64,000 bases of DNA from Magnetococcales bacterium (GCA_015232825.1 JADFYY010000001.1:20978-84977), one strand, 5' to 3'. Shown: positions 3,676 through 16,509, counted from the stretch's first letter. Numbers and translations are program-made. Notes: generated by a model from the sequence alone, not told the origin.

Positions 3676-4557
3676 CTATGGACGGAACAAGTCGATGATC
3701 TTGTTTTGATCGTAATCGGGATGTCCCCCGACCATTTTCACAATATTGGCCAAACGCTCATCCAGTGTTTCCCGGTCTTCCTTGTAGAGCAAACCCATGG
3801 GACGTCGGCCTTCCGCATCTCCACGAGCCAATTCCATGGCTGCTCCCAAATTGGAGGTATCATGACCTTCTGGCACATCAATCATCAGATCACGATAATA
3901 CTGAATGGTGTCGATCCGGTTGTAGGTGACGCATTGAGAATAGATATGAACATAAGAGAAACCCTTATGCTCAATCGCACCTTTAATCAAATCTGCGCAC
4001 ACCTTGGGTTTGCCAGCAAAGGCCTGGGCCACATAGGTGGCTCCATAGGTCAATTGATACAGCAAGGGATTCAAGGGATCGTCAGGACCGCCATACGGAG
4101 TCGTATAGGCTTTCAGTTCCCGACGGGAGGTGGGAGAATATTGTCCCTTGGTCAACCCATAAATGCCGTTGTCAAACAGGATGTAGGTCAGGTTGACATT
4201 GCGGCGCGCCATGTGGGGCAAATGACCGCCACCAATGGCATAACCATCGCCATCTCCACCCGTGACCACCACCAACTGGTCAGGACGAGCGAGTTGCACG
4301 CCTGTAGCCACCGGTCCAGCGCGACCATGCAGGGTGTGCATTTTGTAGGACTGAACAAAATAGGGTGTCCGCGAGGAGCAACCAATACCCGACACGTTGA
4401 TCATGTTGGTCGGATCCACCCCAGCTTCTGAGAAGGCACGCAAAATGCCATTCAGAATACCATGATGTCCGCAACCAGGACACCACACGACACTCACGTC
4501 AGACTTGTACTCCTTGGGAGCCATCTCTTTTTGATGCAAAGCGGCGGTAGACATCAA
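3676..4557 (-). CDS. korB: 2-oxoacid (2-oxoglutarate):ferredoxin oxidoreductase beta subunit
   Basis: WCPGCG, SGIGCS, HTLHGRA, the GDGD TPP-binding motif and YGLTKGQYSPT. Overlaps the korA stop. Confidence 0.9.
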   Translation of the reverse strand: MMSTAALHQKEMAPKEYKSDVSVVWCPGCGHHGILNGILRAFSEAGVDPTNMINVSGIGCSSRTPYFVQSYKMHTLHGRAGPVATGVQLARPDQLVVVTGGDGDGYAIGGGHLPHMARRNVNLTYILFDNGIYGLTKGQYSPTSRRELKAYTTPYGGPDDPLNPLLYQLTYGATYVAQAFAGKPKVCADLIKGAIEHKGFSYVHIYSQCVTYNRIDTIQYYRDLMIDVPEGHDTSNLGAAMELARGDAEGRRPMGLLYKEDRETLDERLANIVKMVGGHPDYDQNKIIDLFRP

Positions 4558-6272
4558 AGCACCTCCTTGACTTTGTTCACGATCATTGAGGGGTTAAACG
4601 GCAACCCGCCACAAATGGTATAGGAAATTGGACGAATGGAGGTCTCAGCCCGAATGAAATGGGCCAATTGTCCCTGGAAATTTACTTCAGGTACGAGGAT
4701 CTTTTTGCAGGTGGCCGCAAAGGCTTCGTACTGAGCGACAGGCATGGGCCACATCAGCTTGGGATAGAATCCCTTGGCTTTGATCCCCTCTTCCCGCAAT
4801 CTGGCAACAGCCTCACGAACCACACCAATGGTGCTGCCCCAGGCGATAATACCGATATCGGCCTCACCCGTGCCATCGACTTCTGTGGGCTTGTAGGTAT
4901 TGACCAGACCCGCATATTTACCAGTCCGTTTAGCCTGCATGGCCTCATGATTGGCCGGTGCCCACAAAGGAGCCCCATTAGGACCATGTTCCAGACCTGT
5001 GGCGATGTGTTCTCCGCCTGGGGTGCCTGGGTCGGCCATGGGAGAGATCAAGTCATCGGTCATGGCATAGCGAAAATACTTACCAACCCCATCCCACCGC
5101 TTGCGCTTCACCAGCGTATAGTTTTCCGGTTTAGGCGCGGGAACGGTCTGCGTAGAGAAGGCCAAAGATCCATCCGACAACAAAATAACCGGGCATTGGA
5201 ACTGCTCAGCCATGTTGAGGGCGTCCACGGTCATGTCAATGCAGTCCTTCACGTCTTCCACAGACAAAACAATGCGTGGGGCATCGCCGTGGGTGCCGTG
5301 AATGGCCAGGAACAGGTCAGATTGCTCGTGTTTGGTTGGCAGTCCCGTGGAGGGGCCACCCCGTTGCACGTCCACCAGCATGCAGGGAATTTCACCCATG
5401 AAGGCCATGCCAAGCAGTTCGCTCATCAGAGAGAGTCCAGGACCAGATGTGGCAGTCATGGATTTTTTGCCAGCATAGGATGCGCCCAGAACTTGACCAA
5501 TCGAAGAGATTTCGTCTTCAGCCTGTACCAAGGTTCCGCCTTTTTTAGGCAGATGGGTGGCGACAAATTTGGCAATTTCGGTGGCGGGGGTGATCGGATA
5601 GGCAGAGAAAAATTCCAACCCACCCAGCACCGCACCCATTCCAATGGCGTCGTTGCCAGAGATAATGATGACATCCTTGGAGGCTACCGCATCGGCCACA
5701 CGCCGGGAATCGACCTTTTTATGAGCAAGTCCCAACTCTTTGCCTTTTTCAAACGCCTTGAGGTTGAAATCCAGGATTTCTTCGCCCTTTTTCTTGAATT
5801 TCTTGGTCAAGACCTGTTTCACAGTATCTTCGTTGATATTGAACAGGGCAGAAAGAGCCCCCATGGCCACCATGTTTTTGGAACGATAAGAACCCAGTTC
5901 CTTGGCAGCCTGCGACATGGGGATGGGATAGGCCGTGACCCCTTCTGGGATGGCTTCCGGTTCAAAATCTCCACCTGGATAATCATACACAAAGACCGTA
6001 CCCGGTTTCAGGAGATGTTTGTTCAACTCATAGGCTTCGCCATTGTAGGCGCAAAAGACATCAAAGGTGTCTCCCTGGTTGAAAATTCTCTCGGAACTGA
6101 CCCGAATTTGATACATGCAATAGCCGCCTTTGACTTCAGCCGGAAAGGTCTTAAAAGTATAGACCTCCAACCCCGCTCTGGCGCACGCCGCCGCGATGAA
6201 ATCCCCGGTGGAGACGACACCTTCGCCCCCTTCCCCGGCGACCCGGATAATCAGATCATTTTCTTTTGACAT
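4554..6272 (-). CDS. korA: 2-oxoacid (2-oxoglutarate):ferredoxin oxidoreductase alpha subunit (gamma-alpha fusion)
   Basis: AGEGGEGV, YPITPATE, QAEDEI, TATSGPG and QRGGPSTGLPT motifs. Confidence 0.9.
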   Translation of the reverse strand: MSKENDLIIRVAGEGGEGVVSTGDFIAAACARAGLEVYTFKTFPAEVKGGYCMYQIRVSSERIFNQGDTFDVFCAYNGEAYELNKHLLKPGTVFVYDYPGGDFEPEAIPEGVTAYPIPMSQAAKELGSYRSKNMVAMGALSALFNINEDTVKQVLTKKFKKKGEEILDFNLKAFEKGKELGLAHKKVDSRRVADAVASKDVIIISGNDAIGMGAVLGGLEFFSAYPITPATEIAKFVATHLPKKGGTLVQAEDEISSIGQVLGASYAGKKSMTATSGPGLSLMSELLGMAFMGEIPCMLVDVQRGGPSTGLPTKHEQSDLFLAIHGTHGDAPRIVLSVEDVKDCIDMTVDALNMAEQFQCPVILLSDGSLAFSTQTVPAPKPENYTLVKRKRWDGVGKYFRYAMTDDLISPMADPGTPGGEHIATGLEHGPNGAPLWAPANHEAMQAKRTGKYAGLVNTYKPTEVDGTGEADIGIIAWGSTIGVVREAVARLREEGIKAKGFYPKLMWPMPVAQYEAFAATCKKILVPEVNFQGQLAHFIRAETSIRPISYTICGGLPFNPSMIVNKVKEVL

Positions 6273-6315: not shown

Positions 6316-7188
6316 CTAGCCTTTCAGTGAGCGTTTGATTACAATGCCCATTTCTGCTGGAGACCGGGCGATATGGACTCCAGCCTGCTCCAGTGCTTCA
6401 AACTTTTCGGCGGCAGTTCCCTTACCACCAGAGATAATAGCACCGGCATGTCCCATCCGTTTGCCCTTAGGCGCGGTGGCTCCAGCGATAAACGCCGTTA
6501 CCGGTTTGGTCATGTGGGCCTTGATCCAGGCTGCGGCCTCTTCTTCGGCGGTACCGCCGATTTCACCGATCATGATGACCGCTTCGGTTTGAGGATCGTT
6601 TTGGAACATGGAAAGACAGTCAATAAAATTGGTGCCATTGATCGGGTCGCCACCCAGGCCAACGCAGGTGGTTTGTCCCAAGCCCACGGCTGTGGTTTGG
6701 GCCACGGCTTCATAAGTCAATGTGCCAGATCTGGAAACCACACCAATACTGCCCACTTTATGGATATGTCCCGGCATGATACCGATCTTGCAGGCCCCAG
6801 GGGTGATAACTCCCGGACAGTTCGGACCCACCAGACGGGTGGCACGGCCAGTCAAGAACCGTTTGACCTTGACCATATCCAGAACCGGAATCCCTTCGGT
6901 GATACAGACCACCAATTTCACGCCCGCATCGGCGGCTTCCATGATGGCATCAGCGGCAAAGGGAGGCGGGACAAAAATGACCGATGCATCCGCGCCGGTC
7001 TCCCGGACGGCTTCGGCCACGGTGTTGAAAACCGGTCTGTCAAGGTGTCTGCTCCCACCTTTGCCAGGAGTCACGCCCCCGACCAGTTGGGTGCCGTATG
7101 CGATGGCTTGTTCGGAATGAAACGTTCCGTTTGCCCCAGTGAATCCCTGGCAAATTACCCGGGTGTTCTTGTCAACCAAAATGCTCAT
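6316..7188 (-). CDS. sucD: Succinyl-CoA synthetase alpha subunit
   Basis: MSILV...[20 protein letters not shown] and the RMGHAGA phospho-His motif. Confidence 0.97.
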
Positions 7189-7202
7189 GGAACAACCCTC
7201 CC

Positions 7203-8363
7203 TTATTGAATGGATGCCACAACTTTGGTGGCGGCGTCGTCAAGATCATCAGCAGGAATAATGGCTAGACCCGACTGACGCAGAATTTCCTTACCCCGAT
7301 CCACATTGGTTCCTTCAAGACGCACCACCAGAGGCACCTTGACGTCAACCTGCCGTGCGGCGGCTACAACACCATCTGCGATGACATCGCAACGCATGAT
7401 GCCACCAAAGATATTGATCAAAACCGCCTTAACATTTGGATCGGACAAGATCAATTGCAAAGCAGCCGTCACCGACTCCGTGGTGGCTCCACCGCCAACA
7501 TCCAAGAAATTGGCAGGACTTCCACCCTTGATCTTGATGATATCCATGGTGGCCATAGCCAGACCGGCTCCATTGACCATACAACCAATGCTGCCGTCTA
7601 AGGAGATGTAATTGAGATCATGCTTGGAGGCGGCTACTTCGCGGGGGTTTTCTTCGTCAAGATCGCGCAATTCCAGGATATCCTTGTGACGATACAAGGC
7701 ATTGCCGTCAAAATTCATTTTGGCATCCAGGGCCATCACATCCCCTTCCTTGGTGACCACCAGGGGATTGATTTCAACCAAAGAGGCATCAGTCGAAATA
7801 AAGGCGTTGTACAATGCGGTCATGAACTGCACGCCCTTGCCCACTTGTCCCCCTTCAAGACCCAATCCAAAGGCCAGATTACGGGCCTGAAAGGCCTGAA
7901 AACCAACGGCGGGATCAATGGCTTCCTTGAGGATTTTTTCAGGAGTTCTTGCGGCGACCTCTTCGATCTCCATGCCCCCTTCGGTGGAGGCCATCATCGT
8001 GACACGACCTGTGGCTCGGTCGATGACCATGCCCAGATAGAGTTCACGGGCGATGTTACACCCCTCCTCCACATAAATCCGCTTGACTTCCTTGCCTTGT
8101 GGACCTGTTTGCTTGGTAATCAGGGTCATACCAAGCATCCGTTTGGCTTCCTCGCGGACCTCGTCAATGGATTTGACCACCTTGACCCCACCGCCTTTAC
8201 CCCGTCCCCCGGCGTGTATTTGTGATTTGACCACAAACACGGCGGATCCCAACTCTTTTGCTCCGGTTTCGGCTTCCGCTGGGGTGTATGCTACCTGCCC
8301 CCTAGGAACTTTGATCCCAAACCCGGCCAGAATTTTTTTTGCTTGATATTCATGAATGTTCAT
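7203..8363 (-). CDS. sucC: Succinyl-CoA synthetase beta subunit
   Basis: [43 protein letters not shown] and RLEGTN. Confidence 0.97.
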
Positions 8364-8385
8364 ATTTTCTCACCAGTTTTGCTCC

Positions 8386-8417
8386 GTTTCAATCCACGTC
8401 CCCGCACGGGGGGCGAC
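8386..8417 (-). repeat. Solitary type I-C-like CRISPR repeat, copy 1 (frdA-sucC intergenic)
   Basis: The minus strand reads GTCGCCCCCCGTGCGGGGACGTGGATTGAAAC: 32 nt with a GC hairpin and the 3' GTGGATTGAAAC end typical of I-C repeats. It is 30/32 identical to the copy at 9794-9825. No neighbouring repeat-spacer units. Confidence 0.85.
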
Positions 8418-8430
8418 TTAAATGCACACA

Positions 8431-10128
8431 TCAAACCGGTTGAACTGTCCCATACGTCGGTAACAATCGGGGAGCAGTGATTCCAGGTTGAATGCCTGCA
8501 GACTCCAGTTGTTCCAAAAAGGCCTCCAAATGACCAAGTCCTGGATCCTGGACATGCCTGGAGGTTGCGGCAAACTCGGCGGCACTCAAACCCGCCCGAC
8601 GACCAAACACCATGATTTCCAACAAGGCATTCCCCATGAGTCGATTGCGACCATGTACCCCGCCCGTCACCTCACCGGCTGCAAAGAGTCCTGGCATATC
8701 GGTTCCGCCATTTGGCCAGATGACCACCCCGCCATTTTGATAATGGAGCGTGGGAAAAGCCAACAGCGGCACCTGACGAAGATCCAGACCCATGGCATGA
8801 TATTCTTTATAACGGCCAGGAAATTCCCGTTCAATGGTTCCTCGACCGTGGATAAAATCGATCATGGGAATATCCAGCCACACCCCTACCCCGCCGCCAG
8901 GAACCGTAACCCCGTTGCCAAATTCGGTGCATTCACGAATGATGGCGGCTGTGGTTACATCGCGCGGCTCTAAGCTGAAAACAAACTCTTCGCCATGACG
9001 ATTGAGAATCTGGGCACCCAGCCCCCGAAATTTTTCAGTAAGCAACAATCCCGTCAATTTTTCAGGAAACATCACTCCCGTTGGATGATACTGGCAATTT
9101 TGCAAGTCCCGCAATGGAACACCTGCTCGATAGGCCAAAACCAATCCATCTGCTGTGGCTCCAGGGTGGTTGGAGGTCGGAAAACCTTGAAAATGGAGAC
9201 GTCCGAATCCACCCGTAGCCAATATCACGGCTTTGGCTTGGACGACAATCACCTTTCCGGTGGTGATTTGTTCCAATACGGCCCCAACGGCCCGACCGTT
9301 TTCGTCGGTCAGCAATTCAACCGCTGGAGAGAACTGTAATACGGAGATCTCCTCCTGACAGTTCATACGATCCTTGAGAACACGCATCATTTCCAATCCG
9401 GTGACATCGCCTGCGGCATGGACCCGCTTACGGGATGTCCCACCCCCATGACGCACCTTCATGCGACCTGTGGGATATTTGTCAAACAGCATGCCCAACT
9501 CTTCGAGCCAGCGCAGGATTGCGGGAGCTTCCGTCACCATTGCCTCAACCAGATCGGCATTGCTGCTGAAGTGTCCGCCACCCATGATATCCAGAAAATG
9601 CTGGGCTGGGGAGTCGCACTCGTGATCTGCAACCTGCATCCCCCCTTCGGCCATCCTGGTATTGGAGTCGCCGTGCCGCAATTTAGTGGCCAGTACCACC
9701 TTGGCTCCTTTTTCAGCCGCGACAATGGCCGCTGCGGTACCGGCTCCGCCACCACCAATCACCAATACATCCGTGATGATATCCGGTGTGAGTGTTTCAA
9801 TCCACGCCCCCGCACGGGAGGCGACTTGGGAGTCCCCCTGCTCCTTGAGCAACCGCATGATCGATGGACGAGGCCATGATTCCAATAGGTTGGCCAGTTC
9901 GCAGGGCATCTCACTTCCTTTTGACGTGCCAACGACCAAGGCCCTGCGACCGCCCTCTCGGTAATCCGGGTGCGCTTCAGCCAACAGGGCGCGACGATCC
10001 GAAAGCGAGAGGGATTCAATGCGTATTCCCCGTTGTCGATTAGAAAGTCGTGCCTCACGGGATCTTTGCACCAGACGGGCGGACTCTCGCAAAGCTTCAG
10101 GAAAAACACTTAAATAGTTTGTTGACAT
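8431..10128 (-). CDS. Fumarate reductase/succinate dehydrogenase-family flavoprotein (soluble, TfrA-like)
   Basis: FAD-binding DVLVIGGGGAG, HGGGTSRKR, QYHPTG, LLLTEKFRG, HYQNGG and HGRNRLMGNAL. Lies in an operon with sucCD-korAB. Confidence 0.85.
   Translation of the reverse strand: MSTNYLSVFPEALRESARLVQRSREARLSNRQRGIRIESLSLSDRRALLAEAHPDYREGGRRALVVGTSKGSEMPCELANLLESWPRPSIMRLLKEQGDSQVASRAGAWIETLTPDIITDVLVIGGGGAGTAAAIVAAEKGAKVVLATKLRHGDSNTRMAEGGMQVADHECDSPAQHFLDIMGGGHFSSNADLVEAMVTEAPAILRWLEELGMLFDKYPTGRMKVRHGGGTSRKRVHAAGDVTGLEMMRVLKDRMNCQEEISVLQFSPAVELLTDENGRAVGAVLEQITTGKVIVVQAKAVILATGGFGRLHFQGFPTSNHPGATADGLVLAYRAGVPLRDLQNCQYHPTGVMFPEKLTGLLLTEKFRGLGAQILNRHGEEFVFSLEPRDVTTAAIIRECTEFGNGVTVPGGGVGVWLDIPMIDFIHGRGTIEREFPGRYKEYHAMGLDLRQVPLLAFPTLHYQNGGVVIWPNGGTDMPGLFAAGEVTGGVHGRNRLMGNALLEIMVFGRRAGLSAAEFAATSRHVQDPGLGHLEAFLEQLESAGIQPGITAPRLLPTYGTVQPV
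9794..9825 (-). repeat. Solitary type I-C-like CRISPR repeat, copy 2 (in frame inside the flavoprotein CDS)
   Basis: The minus strand reads GTCGCCTCCCGTGCGGGGGCGTGGATTGAAAC. It translates as VASRAGAWIET just before the FAD-binding motif. Confidence 0.85.
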
Positions 10129-10136
10129 AACCGAAC

Positions 10137-10943
10137 CTACAACAATCTCTGGTCGTCAGGTAACCAAGTTCCAGGAGGAGAATCATCCGGTTCGTACTCC
10201 CGGCGCAAATAGAGTGCTTGAAACTCCATGTGATCCATATGCCGCATCCAACGAAAAATGGGGGCAAAATGGTTTGTTTCAATTTTTTCAACCATTTTAG
10301 TCAGATGTTCGGCTTGTGGTTGCTGAAAGCGGCCATACCAACGTCGAGCGGCCAAGGCCGCATTGGGTTGAGAGATGCTGGAGGGACAGCGCAACACGCA
10401 GATTTGGCATCCGATACAGGTAAAGGATTCCTGGGCGGCCCCTTTAAGGTCGCCCCGTTTGATCATACCCACATACCCCATGACGTCGATATCTTTGGGG
10501 CAGACTCGAACACACTCGCCGCACATGATGCAGTTGTTAACCTCTGGGTAGAGGCGCAAAACATGATAGCCCGGCGTTTCTCCCTCCAGGAGATTCAGAC
10601 AATGGGGAACCTTAGTCTGTGGGACATAGGGCAATGGTAAAATCTCCATCCCCTCTTGCACATTCTCCTGACACATAAGTGCGGCAGATAGCGCATGAGA
10701 TTTGGCTGGTATGCGATACAACACGGCACACGCACCACAAATGCCACCACGACACCCTACTCCCCGGACAAAACCGATTCCAGACGCTTCCAGTGCGGTC
10801 AGGATTGTTTTGCCCGCAGGGACATCCATCCATGTTTCGTCGTAACGAATGGAAACGGTGGAGGCGGTTTGAGTAGCATTATTCAATGATAAACCATAGC
10901 CTAAGGTTGCAGTTGGTCCATAAGCCCAATGAATCGAGAACAA
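10137..10943 (-). CDS. Fumarate reductase iron-sulfur subunit (2Fe-2S + 2x4Fe-4S); true start uncertain, probably downstream of 10943
   Basis: CRGGICGAC...C (2Fe-2S), CIMCGECVRVCP and CIGCQICVLRCP. Directly upstream of the flavoprotein gene. Confidence 0.8.
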   Translation of the reverse strand: MFSIHWAYGPTATLGYGLSLNNATQTASTVSIRYDETWMDVPAGKTILTALEASGIGFVRGVGCRGGICGACAVLYRIPAKSHALSAALMCQENVQEGMEILPLPYVPQTKVPHCLNLLEGETPGYHVLRLYPEVNNCIMCGECVRVCPKDIDVMGYVGMIKRGDLKGAAQESFTCIGCQICVLRCPSSISQPNAALAARRWYGRFQQPQAEHLTKMVEKIETNHFAPIFRWMRHMDHMEFQALYLRREYEPDDSPPGTWLPDDQRLL

Positions 10944-10963
10944 AGAAATTCAATAAGCTTTCC

Positions 10964-11009
10964 AAGAATGCCATGGACTGCAACAAGGATCAAGGTCTGA
11001 TGGAACATT
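10964..11009 (-). promoter_or_regulatory. Repeated promoter-like element, copy A (diverged), upstream of the frdB-like operon
   Basis: 38/46 identical to 16533-16578. Minus strand TTGATC-N17-CATTCT with an extended TG. Confidence 0.55.
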
Positions 11010-11029: not shown

Positions 11030-11515
11030 TTACGGCGTCGTTTGCGGGGTTGCAGGTCGGGTGGTCGCGGGAACTTTGCCAAGATTCTGCTCAAGAGCGG
11101 GTAACGGGTGATTGGAGATAACAATAGGCTGAGTTGGAGGAAAGTAGCGCAGAGCAGTAAAGAGCATCCCGGCCACAGCCACAAGCATCAGACCTACTTG
11201 AATAGTCATCCGGTACTCAAGCTCTTTGATGTCACGCTTGAATTCGATTTTATTCATCTCGATTTTGCTGTCCAGATCTTTGATATCCCGCTTCAGTTCA
11301 TCCTTGGTTTCCTTTAGATCCTGTCTGGTTACCAAACCACTCATCTGTTCTTCTGACTGTTTGTCGCGTCGATCAATCCGTTCGTCAATACGGTCTTCCG
11401 TCTGCTTCATGACGGTCACCAATGCCTTGACATGACCCTTGGCATGTTCATCAGAAATGCCAACAGCCCTGAGCTGTTCAGTGAATTCCAATGTATCAAA
11501 CGTGATCGCATGCAT
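11030..11515 (-). CDS. DUF1640/CCDC90-like coiled-coil membrane-anchored protein
   Basis: N-terminal MHAITFDTLEFTEQLRAVG, central coiled coil (LVTRQDL...KRDIKELE) and a C-terminal TM helix. ATG at 11515 is preferred over the ORF-track start, which runs through the repeat element. Confidence 0.75.
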   Translation of the reverse strand: MHAITFDTLEFTEQLRAVGISDEHAKGHVKALVTVMKQTEDRIDERIDRRDKQSEEQMSGLVTRQDLKETKDELKRDIKDLDSKIEMNKIEFKRDIKELEYRMTIQVGLMLVAVAGMLFTALRYFPPTQPIVISNHPLPALEQNLGKVPATTRPATPQTTP

Positions 11516-11558
11516 GGAATTTGTCCATTGTGCTTGGTTGAATGAGATCAAACTAAGT

Positions 11559-11616
11559 TTATGAGTAAAATCAACTGATTTAATAATACCATTGGTTACA
11601 ACAAGGATCAAGGCCT
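11559..11616 (-). promoter_or_regulatory. Repeated promoter-like element, copy B
   Basis: 54/58 identical to 16510-16567. Minus strand -35 TTGATC (11606-11611), 17-nt spacer, extended -10 TGgTATTAT (11583-11588). Confidence 0.7.
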
Positions 11617-11957
11617 CCTCTTTGCTGCCCATGCACTGTTACAACTCCTGACCATCTTGGGTGGCGATCAAATCAGACAACTGGCCAACCTCACACCTTG
11701 GCGCGTTAATCGAACTGTTACTGCTGGCTTGATACGAACCGGACTCCAGAAACATTTCTCGCACATCCTGGTTCGCGACTGGTGGGACTCAAAGTCCCGG
11801 AAATTCATGCCATCAAACGGCATCCTACTGACCAGTTTAGCTTCCACCTGACACAACACGGTCCAAAATCAATCTTTTCTCGCCCGTTTTCCACGAATCC
11901 AACGATCTTGGGCAGGAGGGGTGCGAGTCTAAAGTCCAGTTAAAACAAATAATGCGA

Positions 11958-14900
11958 TTAAAAATATTCTGCCTTTTGCAACCACTCATCCGTTTTATAA
12001 ATCCCCATTTGCAGAAATCTGTCTTGCAAGGCGACAATACGGTGCATAAGCTTTTCATCGTTGGTTTCGTCCGCTTCACGCAAAATAGAGGTCCATGCAA
12101 CAAAAAGATCGTCCGTATCCCAAATGTGACTGAGACATTTCAGGCTGCTCAAGTGTTCTACCAACTGCTCACATAGTTCCAGAGCGCGTAAAGAATCCTG
12201 TTCGGCAAGGAACGCTATCCACTCGAAGAAAAAACCCAAATTACAACGGACACCTGTTGACGCAATATGATTGATGAACTGCTGCCCCAACTGCACGGGA
12301 ATGTATGGGTGAAGCTTCTTGTTGCTAAACATCTGTATTAATTCCGAAAACAGGACATCAGACAGAGTGTCCCACCGCATAATTTCTTCCAGACCAGAAA
12401 CACAAAGTGCCTTGTGTTTGTCCAAATTTGCCCGAAAAACCTGAACAGCTCCTTTCCAAGCATGGTCACTATTTTTGACACGCAAATGCTCAAAAAGCGT
12501 TTCAAGGGTCATGTGCCCAGTCAAGGTGGCGAGAGCGGCAATACGGGACCAACTGTCTGCTGATTCGTCCTGCACTTCCTGGAACATCCTCTCCAATCGC
12601 GGTTCCACCCAGCTATAATGTGAATGATAGTTATAATAAAAAACTTGTTCCGAGGCATCCCAAAGAGAACCTTGTTGCTCTTGAAAAATAATATCAAACA
12701 GATGTCGTCCCAATTCCTGTTGAAAATGAATAATGACTGGAAGATTATCCAGCAAACCAATACGCACAGCAGGAATCGGATCACCGGCGAAGCGTTTTAA
12801 TAGTGGGACGAGTTCCACGGGTAAGGTTTGACCGGCTTCCAGAAGTTTCGCCGCCAAGCGGGCCGCTGCTCCAGCCGCAATTCCTCGTGCAGAGTTGATG
12901 CTTTGACTCCGTAGTCCAGCATCATCCAGCTCCTCCATAGGATCAGGATTTTGGATAGATGCGACAAGCTGTGCCGTCAATCGCTCCACATCCTCAGACA
13001 TCATCAATACGTTTGCACACGCCTCCATGACTCGCGTGCCGGTCGTACCATTCATCAACCACTCTTTGTTTTGCTCCAACAGATCCAGCAGATGGCGCGC
13101 CAAGGGTTCACCATCTGGCAACGGTTTTACGGGCTTCCAATCGTTTGAGCTTAAATTGCCAAAACGGTATTGTATGTGTGCGGCAACTCCATCGACTATG
13201 GATTGCACATACCCCTTTTCAAGACCTTCCTCTGACAGAAATGGCAGATAACGCATAGGATTATTGGATGTCGCATTGCTTAAAACTTCTATCATCTTCT
13301 CCTTGCCACCAATCAGAAAATCTCTGTCAAAGACAGATTGGCGTTTAATATTTTCATAGTAGCGCAAAAGTTGGATCTGACTATAAAAAGAGAGTGTCTC
13401 GAATGTTTCCAGGTCAACCGGTGGACGGACACAACCACCCCAGGAAAAAATTTCAGGATCTGGCAGGATATGTCCGATGAAGGTGACATGTTGATCAAGG
13501 AAGGTTTGAACCTCAGGGATCCGAAAAATACAGGGAATCCAAATAAGTCGATTATAATAGCTACGTATTCCCCATGCATTACAACTACTTTGATCATCTT
13601 CTTTATCAAGCAGTTCCAATATGGCCTGTTGATATGCACTCATGACATCATTTTCTACACAATGAGAACTAACATTTACCAACTGTCCTAGTTCATAAAA
13701 TATTGTTGAAATATTCATCAATTCTTCGTCCATCAATTGACAGGCAATGCCGACTCCATAACGCTCTGGCTGACGGACATAAGCCAAAATTAAAAAATAA
13801 CGTAAAGCCAGATTGCGGCATGTCCGTAAACGAACCTCGTTGACTTGCCACCATGGAGTATTGCTATCCGCATGAAAAAACAGAGCATTTTCTAAACTAT
13901 CCAATAAAATGGACCGATCACTGATGTGGGAGGTATCGTTTTCTTCATGCTGGTTGCGCCAAGAAGTCTCCTTTACATCCCCAATGCTATCGGCCAAATG
14001 GCCAGTCCCTTCTTCCAAGGTATTAATAACCATGTCCATCAGGAGTTCGGAATTAATCAAACGGTTTTTCAAAAAATCCTGGTCATGAAAATGGTGAGGC
14101 TGACATTTTATACCTTTTTTAATACTATAACTACTAAAATTTTTCACATTATTATAAATGAACGCCCATAATAGGTCATCCCCCTGGTTAGTTGCTGTCA
14201 CATAGCGACTAATGGCTGTACCGGCTACGTAATCCTGGGATCCTTTAAGATTCATGAGCCTCTCCAGAAGAGTTCGGCAGCCTTGTGTATGCCATTGGGT
14301 GAAGCGGTCCAGACTGTGAGAAAGATTCATCACCAACCAGGAGCCATCAGACTCCCGATCCAACATCTTCAGCCACAACGCTACGCACTCAGAGGGAAAA
14401 TGATTCATCCATACATCCAGGCGACTACTTAACTTCGACTGCCATAGATCATGATCATTTCTTTCCGCAAGCGACGGCAACAGGTTATCATACAACATGC
14501 GGAACCATGCATCATTGCGGGTTTTTTGAAACATCCAGTCAAAAAGTTCCGGCTGATTTTTGCATAACCGATTAATCCATGGCCAATCTGTCGATCCAGG
14601 TTCAATTTCCGCCAAGGTTTCGGCAATCAGTCGGCGGACATGATAGGGCAAGCTTTGATCATTCAGCACCTTGGTCACGTGCCGCCCCAAGCCGGATGAA
14701 TGCACAGTCGCCAAATGTAAAACATAAGCCCGAATGGCTGGACGCACAAAAGGCAACGGAGGCAAGCCACTGACAAATGCGTCCAAGTCAGTTCCTTGTT
14801 TCAGGGCACCACGCACCAACAGATTATCACGCAGGGTCTGATGGGTGAAAGCAAGGGTTTCCGCACCAGCATCACAGAGGATACCCTTGGATATTAGCCG

Positions 14901-16472
14901 TTGTTTGGCATCATGCGATCCCTGCCATAAGGCCATTACCAGCCTTTTTTCCCGTTGAGCCATCATCCCATGAGCCATATTTTGCAAAGCGGTCATGGCG
15001 TCATCTTCCAGAGCCGGATCTTCGATCACCAAATGGCGCAGAAACAGATCATTCAATTGATAGGCACTACGAATGACCGATACGGCGGCCACTTGTGCCA
15101 ATGGATGAAAAAGTCGTAGATTTTGCGGTACGAGAAGCAGATCACGCAGCTCCAATGGCAGAGTTTCTGGATCTACATTCCATTTTATAAGCATTGGTAC
15201 GACTTCTTCTTGCCAATTCAGCTTGCCGATAGTAATGGTTTTATCCCATTTGCGATCCCGCAATCTGGGATGATATACTAGGTCGAAGAGTCGGCAGGCG
15301 GTCACCACGCTCAACTTGGGAATCCGCTTCAGTCGATCCATCAAGCCCAAAAAGAGGGTTAACGCCCCATGGTCTCTTTGCAGGGAGAGTACATCCAGGG
15401 AATCAATGATCACCACCACTTGCCGATTCTCTGCCAAGCGCGCACAACGCCCAACGATGTCATCAGGCAGACCTCGCTCTTTTAGATCGTTCTCCGTGCG
15501 TGCGGCCTCGAACGCATCCCCCCGAATGAAGAGCAAATGTATCGTTGCTTCCTGCTCCAACAGTTCTACCAAGTCCAGCAACACGCACGTCTTGCCAGAA
15601 CCTGGTCCATCCGTTAACAATATAATCTTTGTGTTATTTTTAATGGCCTCATGCAAGTCAGCCACGGCTTGACGCTGAAAACTATGCCCATCTACGTCAC
15701 GATGCCACTGCCTACCGATCAGAGAAGCACTGTTGAAAAGGTTCAAGCTCTCCTGCTCGTTCCAATGAGCGGTGAAATAGATCCCCTCTTGCCCCAACTT
15801 GTCCAGCACATCTTGACGGTAGATGGTGTGCTTGGCGTCACGTATTTTGGACTGATGATTTGTAAGCATTTCTCTAAGAATGCGCATAGCATCAGGAGCG
15901 CGTGGAACCAGTCGAGCAAGATCATCCATATTAATTATGTCCCACTGGACCATACTTCGAGGAATGGCATATTTCAAACTGTGCGCCAAACTAAAGGCCA
16001 ATTGTGAATCTAGCTGCCAAAGTGTGTAGAGTTCTGAAAAAGTTTTTTTTAGGGTGGTGGCTGGCGCTTTTAGATCAAAATTGGCATGGTCTGGATACAT
16101 GGGGATGCCTTCAGCCAATTTATTCAATTCACCAAACGGTGACTGGGAATAGAACTCGACAGATGCCAAAGAATCACTCTGCAATTGATCTCGTGCTTTG
16201 CATAATTCTTTCTGCATAACAGCATCCGATATCCGCCATTCCAGATGATCTGGCTGATTCTTTTTTGCTTGAACATAAAGTTTCCGCTGATCCTGGTAGA
16301 CTACGACCACGTCATCCACAACAACGGCATCCTTCTGACCGGGTATACCGTTGGAGTCCGCTTGTATGAAGTCAATTTTCTCCTCTCCCCGCAACAAACG
16401 GATGATCCAGTGCAAGGCGATACAGATTTGATATTCATCCCCTCGGTGGGAGTAGGTGGCGGGAGTACTCAT
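11958..16472 (-). CDS. AVAST/Avs-like (probably Avs2-type) anti-phage STAND NTPase with an N-terminal PD-(D/E)xK nuclease
   Basis: About 1500 aa. N-terminal RGDEYQ...DDVVV...QAKK nuclease motif, Walker A GPGSGKT, Walker B VVIIDSLD and a long helical C-terminus. SD AGAGGA precedes the ATG at 16472. Confidence 0.75.
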   Translation of the reverse strand: MSTPATYSHRGDEYQICIALHWIIRLLRGEEKIDFIQADSNGIPGQKDAVVVDDVVVVYQDQRKLYVQAKKNQPDHLEWRISDAVMQKELCKARDQLQSDSLASVEFYSQSPFGELNKLAEGIPMYPDHANFDLKAPATTLKKTFSELYTLWQLDSQLAFSLAHSLKYAIPRSMVQWDIINMDDLARLVPRAPDAMRILREMLTNHQSKIRDAKHTIYRQDVLDKLGQEGIYFTAHWNEQESLNLFNSASLIGRQWHRDVDGHSFQRQAVADLHEAIKNNTKIILLTDGPGSGKTCVLLDLVELLEQEATIHLLFIRGDAFEAARTENDLKERGLPDDIVGRCARLAENRQVVVIIDSLDVLSLQRDHGALTLFLGLMDRLKRIPKLSVVTACRLFDLVYHPRLRDRKWDKTITIGKLNWQEEVVPMLIKWNVDPETLPLELRDLLLVPQNLRLFHPLAQVAAVSVIRSAYQLNDLFLRHLVIEDPALEDDAMTALQNMAHGMMAQREKRLVMALWQGSHDAKQRLISKGILCDAGAETLAFTHQTLRDNLLVRGALKQGTDLDAFVSGLPPLPFVRPAIRAYVLHLATVHSSGLGRHVTKVLNDQSLPYHVRRLIAETLAEIEPGSTDWPWINRLCKNQPELFDWMFQKTRNDAWFRMLYDNLLPSLAERNDHDLWQSKLSSRLDVWMNHFPSECVALWLKMLDRESDGSWLVMNLSHSLDRFTQWHTQGCRTLLERLMNLKGSQDYVAGTAISRYVTATNQGDDLLWAFIYNNVKNFSSYSIKKGIKCQPHHFHDQDFLKNRLINSELLMDMVINTLEEGTGHLADSIGDVKETSWRNQHEENDTSHISDRSILLDSLENALFFHADSNTPWWQVNEVRLRTCRNLALRYFLILAYVRQPERYGVGIACQLMDEELMNISTIFYELGQLVNVSSHCVENDVMSAYQQAILELLDKEDDQSSCNAWGIRSYYNRLIWIPCIFRIPEVQTFLDQHVTFIGHILPDPEIFSWGGCVRPPVDLETFETLSFYSQIQLLRYYENIKRQSVFDRDFLIGGKEKMIEVLSNATSNNPMRYLPFLSEEGLEKGYVQSIVDGVAAHIQYRFGNLSSNDWKPVKPLPDGEPLARHLLDLLEQNKEWLMNGTTGTRVMEACANVLMMSEDVERLTAQLVASIQNPDPMEELDDAGLRSQSINSARGIAAGAAARLAAKLLEAGQTLPVELVPLLKRFAGDPIPAVRIGLLDNLPVIIHFQQELGRHLFDIIFQEQQGSLWDASEQVFYYNYHSHYSWVEPRLERMFQEVQDESADSWSRIAALATLTGHMTLETLFEHLRVKNSDHAWKGAVQVFRANLDKHKALCVSGLEEIMRWDTLSDVLFSELIQMFSNKKLHPYIPVQLGQQFINHIASTGVRCNLGFFFEWIAFLAEQDSLRALELCEQLVEHLSSLKCLSHIWDTDDLFVAWTSILREADETNDEKLMHRIVALQDRFLQMGIYKTDEWLQKAEYF

Positions 16473-16509
16473 ATCACAAGGTTCCTCTGTGGCGAACAAT
16501 TATTGAAGA

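Follow-up and report, generated by a model that had tools for sequence, protein, structure and literature searches.

Lone type I-C CRISPR repeats in a housekeeping operon of a Magnetococcales bacterium and their possible origin from self-targeting

In a conserved chromosomal operon of a Magnetococcales bacterium, two type I-C CRISPR repeats are inserted singly and in sense orientation, one in frame within an frdA-like gene and the other in the spacer between this gene and sucC. Both are absent from the corresponding loci of relatives, and insertions of the same kind recur in other lineages. With chances that we put at about even, the repeats are inert scars of self-targeting by a type I-C system not found in the assembly, repaired by copying a repeat over the protospacer-adjacent motif (PAM), and the link to carbon fixation is probably incidental.

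Two lone repeats in the frd-suc-kor operon

The window, i.e., the whole stretch of 64,000 nucleotides that was analysed, is part of a metagenome-assembled genome (3.03 Mb, 270 contigs, 77% complete), and the names of homologues put the organism in the Magnetococcales. The operon comprises the following features.

3676..4557, minus strand: korB-like gene, 2-oxoacid:ferredoxin oxidoreductase beta subunit (Pfam/NCBIfam)
4554..6272, minus strand: korA-like gene, 2-oxoacid:ferredoxin oxidoreductase alpha subunit (Pfam/NCBIfam)
6316..7188, minus strand: sucD, succinate-CoA ligase alpha subunit (Pfam/NCBIfam)
7203..8363, minus strand: sucC, succinate-CoA ligase beta subunit (Pfam/NCBIfam)
8386..8417, minus strand: copy B, intergenic type I-C repeat with a C5/A19 stem mismatch, replacing the 5′ part of the ancestral intergenic region
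8431..10128, minus strand: frdA-like flavoprotein gene (TfrA/SdhA-like), intact 565-aa frame, FAD_binding_2 at residues 120-502
9794..9825, minus strand: copy A, type I-C repeat in frame in frdA, codons 102-112 (VASRAGAWIET)
9826..9829, minus strand: 4-nt tail 5′ of copy A, probably part of a 36-nt (12-codon) insertion
10137..10943, minus strand: frdB-like gene, iron-sulfur subunit (Fer2 + Fer4, domain match)

Pfam and NCBIfam matches support the gene order frdB-frdA-sucC-sucD-korA-korB, with gaps of 8, 67, 14, 43, and -4 nt, and thereby the placement of both repeats on the transcribed strand in the preliminary description. The frd names are given by resemblance only, since the frdA product scores 332 bits and thus below the TfrA cut-off of 718 bits. 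By sucC, the operon is found in 10 of the 13 same-genus genomes, and carbon fixation via the reverse TCA cycle has been reported for Magnetococcales (available text of PMC6783814). The sole Rfam match in the window is a tRNA, and scanning for promoters and terminators gave counts near chance (13 versus 7.9 and 14 versus 9.7). Directly upstream of the operon, on the same strand, lie a CCDC90-like coiled-coil gene (11030-11632) and a 1513-aa ORF (11958-16499), the latter with weak NTPase matches only and no match in PADLOC or NCBIfam, possibly representing an uncharacterised defence or mobile gene.

Re-examination reproduced the two 32-nt copies at 30/32 identity, with starts 1408 bp apart, differences at positions 7 (T/C) and 19 (G/A), and AA directly preceding both. 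They enclose 1376 nt of native frdA, and repeat matches were obtained in none of 100 shuffled sequences. Both copies keep the 3′ GTGGATTGAAAC, and their assignment to type I-C is corroborated by array repeats only 1-3 mismatches away in 5 of 22 family relatives as well as by Cas5d matches in 9 of the 12 genomes of the order that carry repeats, among the matches listed. As had been proposed, no array accompanies them: the genome-wide repeat scan finds none of the I-C type, and the copies have neither the 30-40 nt spacers of a CRISPR array nor another copy nearby. They are thus solitary and full-length, as in the definition of the RNA anti-CRISPRs (Racr) and viral solitary repeat units (SRU). 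Of the GC hairpin formerly ascribed to both, copy A folded alone gives the canonical structure (positions 3-9 with 15-21, 7-bp stem including one G-U pair, -12.1 kcal/mol). Copy B, however, refolds owing to the mismatch in its canonical stem, and with 25-nt flanks the minimum free energy structure contains the canonical hairpin of neither copy.

Insertion sites in this genome

The preliminary description had overlooked that copy A is not merely situated in the mRNA but is coding, starting at frdA codon 102 and read in frame within the linker between the N-terminal and the FAD domain. Since the linkers align residue for residue after removal of 12 codons, the insertion would amount to 36 nt, comprising the repeat and 4 nt on its 5′ side, and FrdA has 565 residues here versus 553 in the closest orthologue. 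None of 29 orthologous frdA loci bears the repeat at up to nine mismatches. The linker varies in length (26-52 residues where measurable, 58/68 homologues), and an alignment-based model with a pLDDT of 50 at residues 101-110, between helix 88-106 and strand 117-124, places the insert in a predicted low-confidence loop before the first Rossmann strand. Protein searches returned no close FrdA relative, the next match being 71-74% identical over residues 1-200, and scanning metagenomes with the frdA N-terminus gave two distant loci only. The idea of a gene cassette, with the FAD domain of frdA as a foreign giant spacer, was discarded because neither composition nor identity changes across copy A (GC3 of 0.535 and 75-77% DNA identity to the closest relative on either side). 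Homologue P0028 (1 of 67), which matched a loose repeat-peptide pattern, was likewise set aside, its linker length being normal. A second genus of the family (L014, L018, L020-L022, L024, L025) carries an unrelated extension of about 13-17 residues in the same linker, so this loop has taken insertions more than once.

Copy B is located 13 nt past the frdA stop codon and 22 nt ahead of the sucC ATG. Same-genus relatives retain the motif following it but differ upstream, which argues for a replacement of sequence by the repeat. When the relatives' frdA-sucC spacers were considered as decayed repeats, no convincing similarity emerged (2 of 24 at p<0.05, uncorrected).

Tabulating copies and orientation genome-wide with a position weight matrix (PWM) extended the earlier count, as a third lone repeat, a 33-nt variant, was found on contig C80 (L074) between pilT and a lipoprotein gene; all three are in sense orientation. 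It is separated by 10 nt from the pilT stop upstream and by 2 nt from the following ATG, and occupies the place of the ancestral ribosome-binding region, whereas five relatives possess a plain spacer of 26-31 nt at this site. The three copies score 47, 47, and 42, as compared with at most 18.3 for anything else in 3.0 Mb and nothing above 17 in the reversed genome. Weak matches on contigs C265, C11, C205, and C215 (17.8-18.3) are inside long ORFs and were not counted. The one at C265:2152 (minus strand, score 18.3) is a repeat-like hairpin and could be an old decayed insertion or a chance match.

REP and RPE elements are short palindromes found in frame in surface loops of conserved enzymes or just behind stop codons. 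Of the dispersed REP/RPE-like alternative that had been considered for the repeats, the RPE-like character of copy A stands, as it is a palindromic in-frame insertion in an exposed, variable loop, and the position just past a stop codon also resembles such elements. However, the element here is a CRISPR repeat with only three clear copies in the genome, which represent two array-like variants and not a family, and, among the matches listed, the 43 genomes of the order that fail to match the repeat pattern have no lone copy either. A family derived from the I-C repeat and spreading by its own mobility is hence extremely unlikely.

For a metagenome-assembled genome, it also has to be considered that array repeats were spliced into the contigs by the assembler, particularly since no reads span the locus. 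In three public groundwater runs (best share 0.13), no piece extends across either repeat over positions 7200-11000, where the read joints are arrays of other organisms; moreover, one case from the survey described below (L122) lies at a contig junction and another has a scaffold gap inside the repeat. Nevertheless, such an artefact appears highly improbable, as the three copies differ from each other (by 2 nt and in the 33-nt variant), the bin has no I-C array, copy A leaves the reading frame intact and is flanked on either side by native sequence, and independently assembled species share insertions of this type.

The type I-C PAM is TTC (available text of PMC6546366 and PMC7049708), which makes up 1.7% of the triplets in this genome. 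At the junctions, relatives show GTT (eight) and ATT (one) for copy B and TCC, ACT, ACT, GTT, and GAC for the pilT site, while a CTC triplet would have preceded the insertion in frdA. Two of the three sites are consequently devoid of a PAM signature, in a comparison with relatives that are only about 75-82% identical.

Cas genes and lone repeats in other genomes

The preliminary description had considered the possibility of a type I-C Cascade in the host (cas5c/cas8c/cas7 and an array of the same repeat), none of which was found in the 77%-complete assembly. No family matches to cas5d, cas8c, cas7, or cas4 were obtained, and tblastn with the whole I-C operon of G036, another genome of the order, hit only cas1 and cas2 on contig C108. 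The latter contig (L031) bears the only cas locus found, a type III-like one at the contig end with csx1/CARF-HEPN, cas1, cas2, two 39-nt repeats, and, by eye, a cas6-like gene. Its repeat differs from the lone I-C repeats and is confined to its own array. The order-wide Cas5d search and the tblastn served as positive controls, and the cas8c and Cas5d family searches gave no match in 14 control genomes. Across the order, 15 of 56 genomes gave a Cas5d match, yet four genomes with arrays escaped this search (G006, G018, G037, G086). Because of these misses, the incompleteness of the assembly, and the frequent failure of arrays to bin, a hidden I-C system is possible and its absence not proven. 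Among 552 spacers from arrays of relatives, none matches the lone-repeat sites of this genome. Likewise, a search for trans targets of the three 35-nt downstream guides gave nothing beyond chance (best E 0.21; short seeds may escape).

Cas5c cuts its repeat RNA so that an 11-nt 3′ handle remains. Had it processed the frd-suc-kor transcript, as suggested previously, a regulatory link between CRISPR and reverse-TCA carbon fixation would result, and the sense orientation of both copies, their intact 3′ ends, the reported occurrence of this pathway in the order, and the Cas5d found in some of its genomes would be in line with it. However, this processing is unsupported because neither I-C effector genes nor an I-C array were found in the assembly, only the type III-like locus. 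The repeat is not conserved at the orthologous frdA loci even where Cas5d and arrays are found (G001, G007, G017), cutting at copy A would hit an ORF, the stem of copy B is broken, and in their flanks neither copy is predicted to adopt the canonical hairpin. The third copy and the cases from other genomes are situated in unrelated operons. We regard this link as very unlikely.

A relaxed repeat pattern matches at least 13 of the 56 genomes of the order. The order-wide filter, which removes array-internal copies and sees about 70% of lone ones, retained 18 matches, i.e., the three of this genome, two lone copies in G036, and 13 in arrays or at array ends. The G036 copies (contig C45, L067; 6276-6307 and 11249-11280) are 5 kb apart, both sense, and identical to its array repeat. 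Site A of G036 is an overlapping stop/start junction into which 93 nt have been inserted without loss of the frame and with a duplication of 6 nt around the start codon; no PAM is present there in relatives. The 291 spacers of G036 do not match its own lone-repeat flanks.

Filtering the GTDB collection, restricted to this one repeat family and of lower sensitivity than the order-wide filter, gave 42 loci, of which 14 are array-linked and 28 were taken to Pfam. After excluding five beside cas genes, L135 with a decayed second repeat, and L115, situated 1.1 kb from an array (it would count as antisense to queA), and after merging L098 with L108, 20 events remained. Seven have no annotated neighbour within 350 nt and one lies in a convergent pair, leaving 12 with orientation, ten sense (grpE-dnaK, tatD-ychJ, pgk, cyclase, GH3, NHL, methyltransferase, thioredoxin-Fic, AAA, zeta) and two antisense (p=0.039). 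With G036 and C80 added, 13 of 15 independent cases are sense (p=0.007), the cut-off and the exclusions having been set after the data were seen. Four more lone copies were seen in viral contigs. At six sites, the 5′ end of the repeat is 0-14 nt past a stop codon (copy B 13, pilT 10, G036 site B 9, tatD 9, pgk 0, and the NHL gene 14 nt). Cas5d was detected in only 2 of the 13 other lone-repeat hosts of the survey, many of them incomplete, plus G036.

As separate observations, L121 is a lone repeat between cas3 and cas5d, antisense to both and a candidate crRNA-like regulator of the I-C operon, and G086, a cable bacterium, has lone or near-lone I-C repeats (L200 at C31:398-429 and L195 on C3), one of which, by eye, is just before a cas4-like ORF.

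Between grpE and dnaK of cable bacteria (L098, L108, L152, L214), an identical repeat occurs in three species, one of them possessing an array whose repeat differs, and the fourth shows the 5′ part before a scaffold gap. It is letter-perfect although the flanking genes are 88-92% identical across the three species, hinting at selection or recent spread. Where the repeat stands, the closest empty allele has 6 nt ending in TTC, and a second one has TTT at the junction. Filled and empty alleles do not form separate groups in the dnaK tree, where filled L151 groups with the two empties (support 90) and filled L152 lies outside; the grpE tree is not resolved (supports 53-54). At tatD-ychJ, the repeat is present in two species, with the loss of 1 nt in one tatD copy, and absent in eight; three of the eight empty alleles align at the junction by eye, showing TTC, TTC, and TTT. 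At both sites, the PAM (TTC, or TTT) in the closest empty alleles is thus found exactly at the repeat's 3′ junction. At the repeat's site, the empty tatD-ychJ alleles L185 and L188 carry a terminator-like hairpin that somewhat resembles the repeat stem. At pgk (L129, L194), the repeat starts directly after the stop codon, and a sister species keeps the hairpin without the 3′ handle, which suggests reuse as an mRNA 3′ hairpin. For L111, empty alleles were found in none of 60 other genomes, and for L122 in 3 of 17, with a junction that is not homologous.

The sense bias would also be expected from an active repeat. Cas5c would then cut the mRNA, and the next ~34 nt could guide the complex to the repeat's own site (homing), so that a filled allele without PAM is safe, an empty PAM-bearing allele is destroyed, and the repeat spreads; alternatively, the cut RNA could be a Racr-type decoy, a host-encoded RNA damping autoimmunity. 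In line with this, PAMs are present at the empty-allele junctions of the two outside sites, alleles are interleaved in the dnaK tree, the grpE-dnaK repeat recurs unaltered in three species and is also found in a fourth, and lone I-C repeats in bicistronic RNAs inhibit I-C systems, as with RacrIC1 (available text of PMC10651486). On the other hand, an I-C effector was not found in this assembly and Cas5d was rarely found in the other hosts, the grpE tree lacks resolution, ordinary recombination explains the patchiness, a cut at copy A would truncate the frdA mRNA, and decayed 3′ handles occur. Activity of this kind is accordingly unlikely, albeit not negligible. Its most far-reaching form, a single repeat as minimal selfish element that is sense, guides itself against empty PAM-bearing alleles, and spreads through core operons and protein loops, is decidedly on the unlikely side.

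Origin and significance of the lone repeats

For repeats left behind by self-targeting, we infer the following course of events. A former I-C system would have taken up spacers from its own chromosome, several of them from one neighbourhood as in primed acquisition, whereupon Cascade-Cas3 would have broken the locus on the PAM side. The surviving end may have annealed to the array at its own spacer, acquired by copying the repeat that lies immediately 5′ of this spacer, and rejoined the upstream chromosome end, such that the repeat replaced the PAM together with a few to a few dozen bases and the patched site would no longer be a target. Only patches sparing coding capacity would survive, either between genes, where the upstream stop codon sets the limit, or in frame within a loop that tolerates them. 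The sense bias could then arise because, with the repeat in sense orientation, the deletion removes a dispensable stretch behind the stop and not the start of the next gene.

This scar repair is favoured because the precise 3′ junction at the PAM boundary, the variable 5′ loss or tail, the local clustering, and the tolerant places fit it. The insertions are lineage-specific with native sequence on both sides, the frdA linker is tolerant, being variable in length and of low pLDDT, and lone copies cluster, at distances of 1.4 kb here and 5 kb in G036. The stem mismatch of copy B, the 1-nt loss in tatD, and the decayed 3′ end at pgk are consistent with inertness, as is the failure to find I-C genes in the assembly. 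In contrast, this genome shows only a weak PAM signature, the spacer searches gave no match for any of the sites, the pilT repeat over a ribosome-binding region is not predicted by the argument for the sense bias, and the letter-perfect grpE-dnaK repeat hints at selection or recent spread.

The same scar could result from an integrase accident not requiring a self-spacer, in which Cas4-Cas1-Cas2 would bind broken ends, trim one at the PAM, and join both to a repeat, with resolution leaving a single repeat at the break. Cas4 trims prespacers at the PAM in type I-C (available text of PMC6546366), and the 3′ junctions at the PAM boundary of grpE-dnaK and tatD-ychJ are predicted by this route as well, which would also dispense with the matching spacer that was not found. 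By itself, however, it accounts neither for the tails of 4 and 55 nt found 5′ of some repeats nor for the local clustering, and the literature search gave no precedent for it, so that we consider it quite improbable.

Several known systems resemble the scars postulated here in part. CreTA is reportedly a crRNA-like regulator with repeats outside arrays. Compared with such crRNA-like regulators, mini-arrays, and CreA, the present copies lie away from any cas locus found and have no partner repeat at spacer distance, and the search for a trans target gave none. Standalone repeats surveyed in and near cas loci guide to promoters in trans, and repeat-like sequences are depleted in the rest of the genome (available text of bioRxiv 10.1101/2023.03.03.530964). 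With Racr and SRU, exemplified by RacrIC1, which lies 11 nt behind acrIC5, they share the single full-length repeat, the lack of nearby cas genes, and the sense position in a longer RNA (PMC10651486, available text). According to the same part of that source, the search for Racrs covered prophages, viruses, and plasmids and masked ORFs. In contrast to the phage, prophage, or plasmid setting of Racrs, the repeats described here belong to a conserved chromosomal housekeeping operon, one copy is in a coding frame, and the matching subtype was not found in the assembly. Escape from self-targeting resembles the proposed cause in that CRISPR autoimmunity is ended by removal of the PAM or target; however, the routes named in the available text of PMC6990116 are mutation or deletion of target, PAM, spacer, or cas genes, and a repeat replacing the PAM is not among them. 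Prophage integration into CRISPR repeats likewise moves repeat sequence around by repeat recombination (available text of bioRxiv 10.1101/2020.10.09.333658), but here no foreign DNA, integrase, or att-like context is found, and native frdA lies between the repeats. In the openly accessible literature, we found no account of lone repeats that lie on chromosomes within housekeeping operons or in frame in proteins.

Solitary repeats are known from mobile elements and cas loci, and the present ones add housekeeping operons on the chromosomes of several unrelated lineages. Were they nothing but scars, they would still document a way of outliving CRISPR autoimmunity that also gives rise to new peptide loops and mRNA hairpins, and the filled and empty grpE-dnaK alleles of cable bacteria provide a direct test bed for distinguishing a scar from an active guide.
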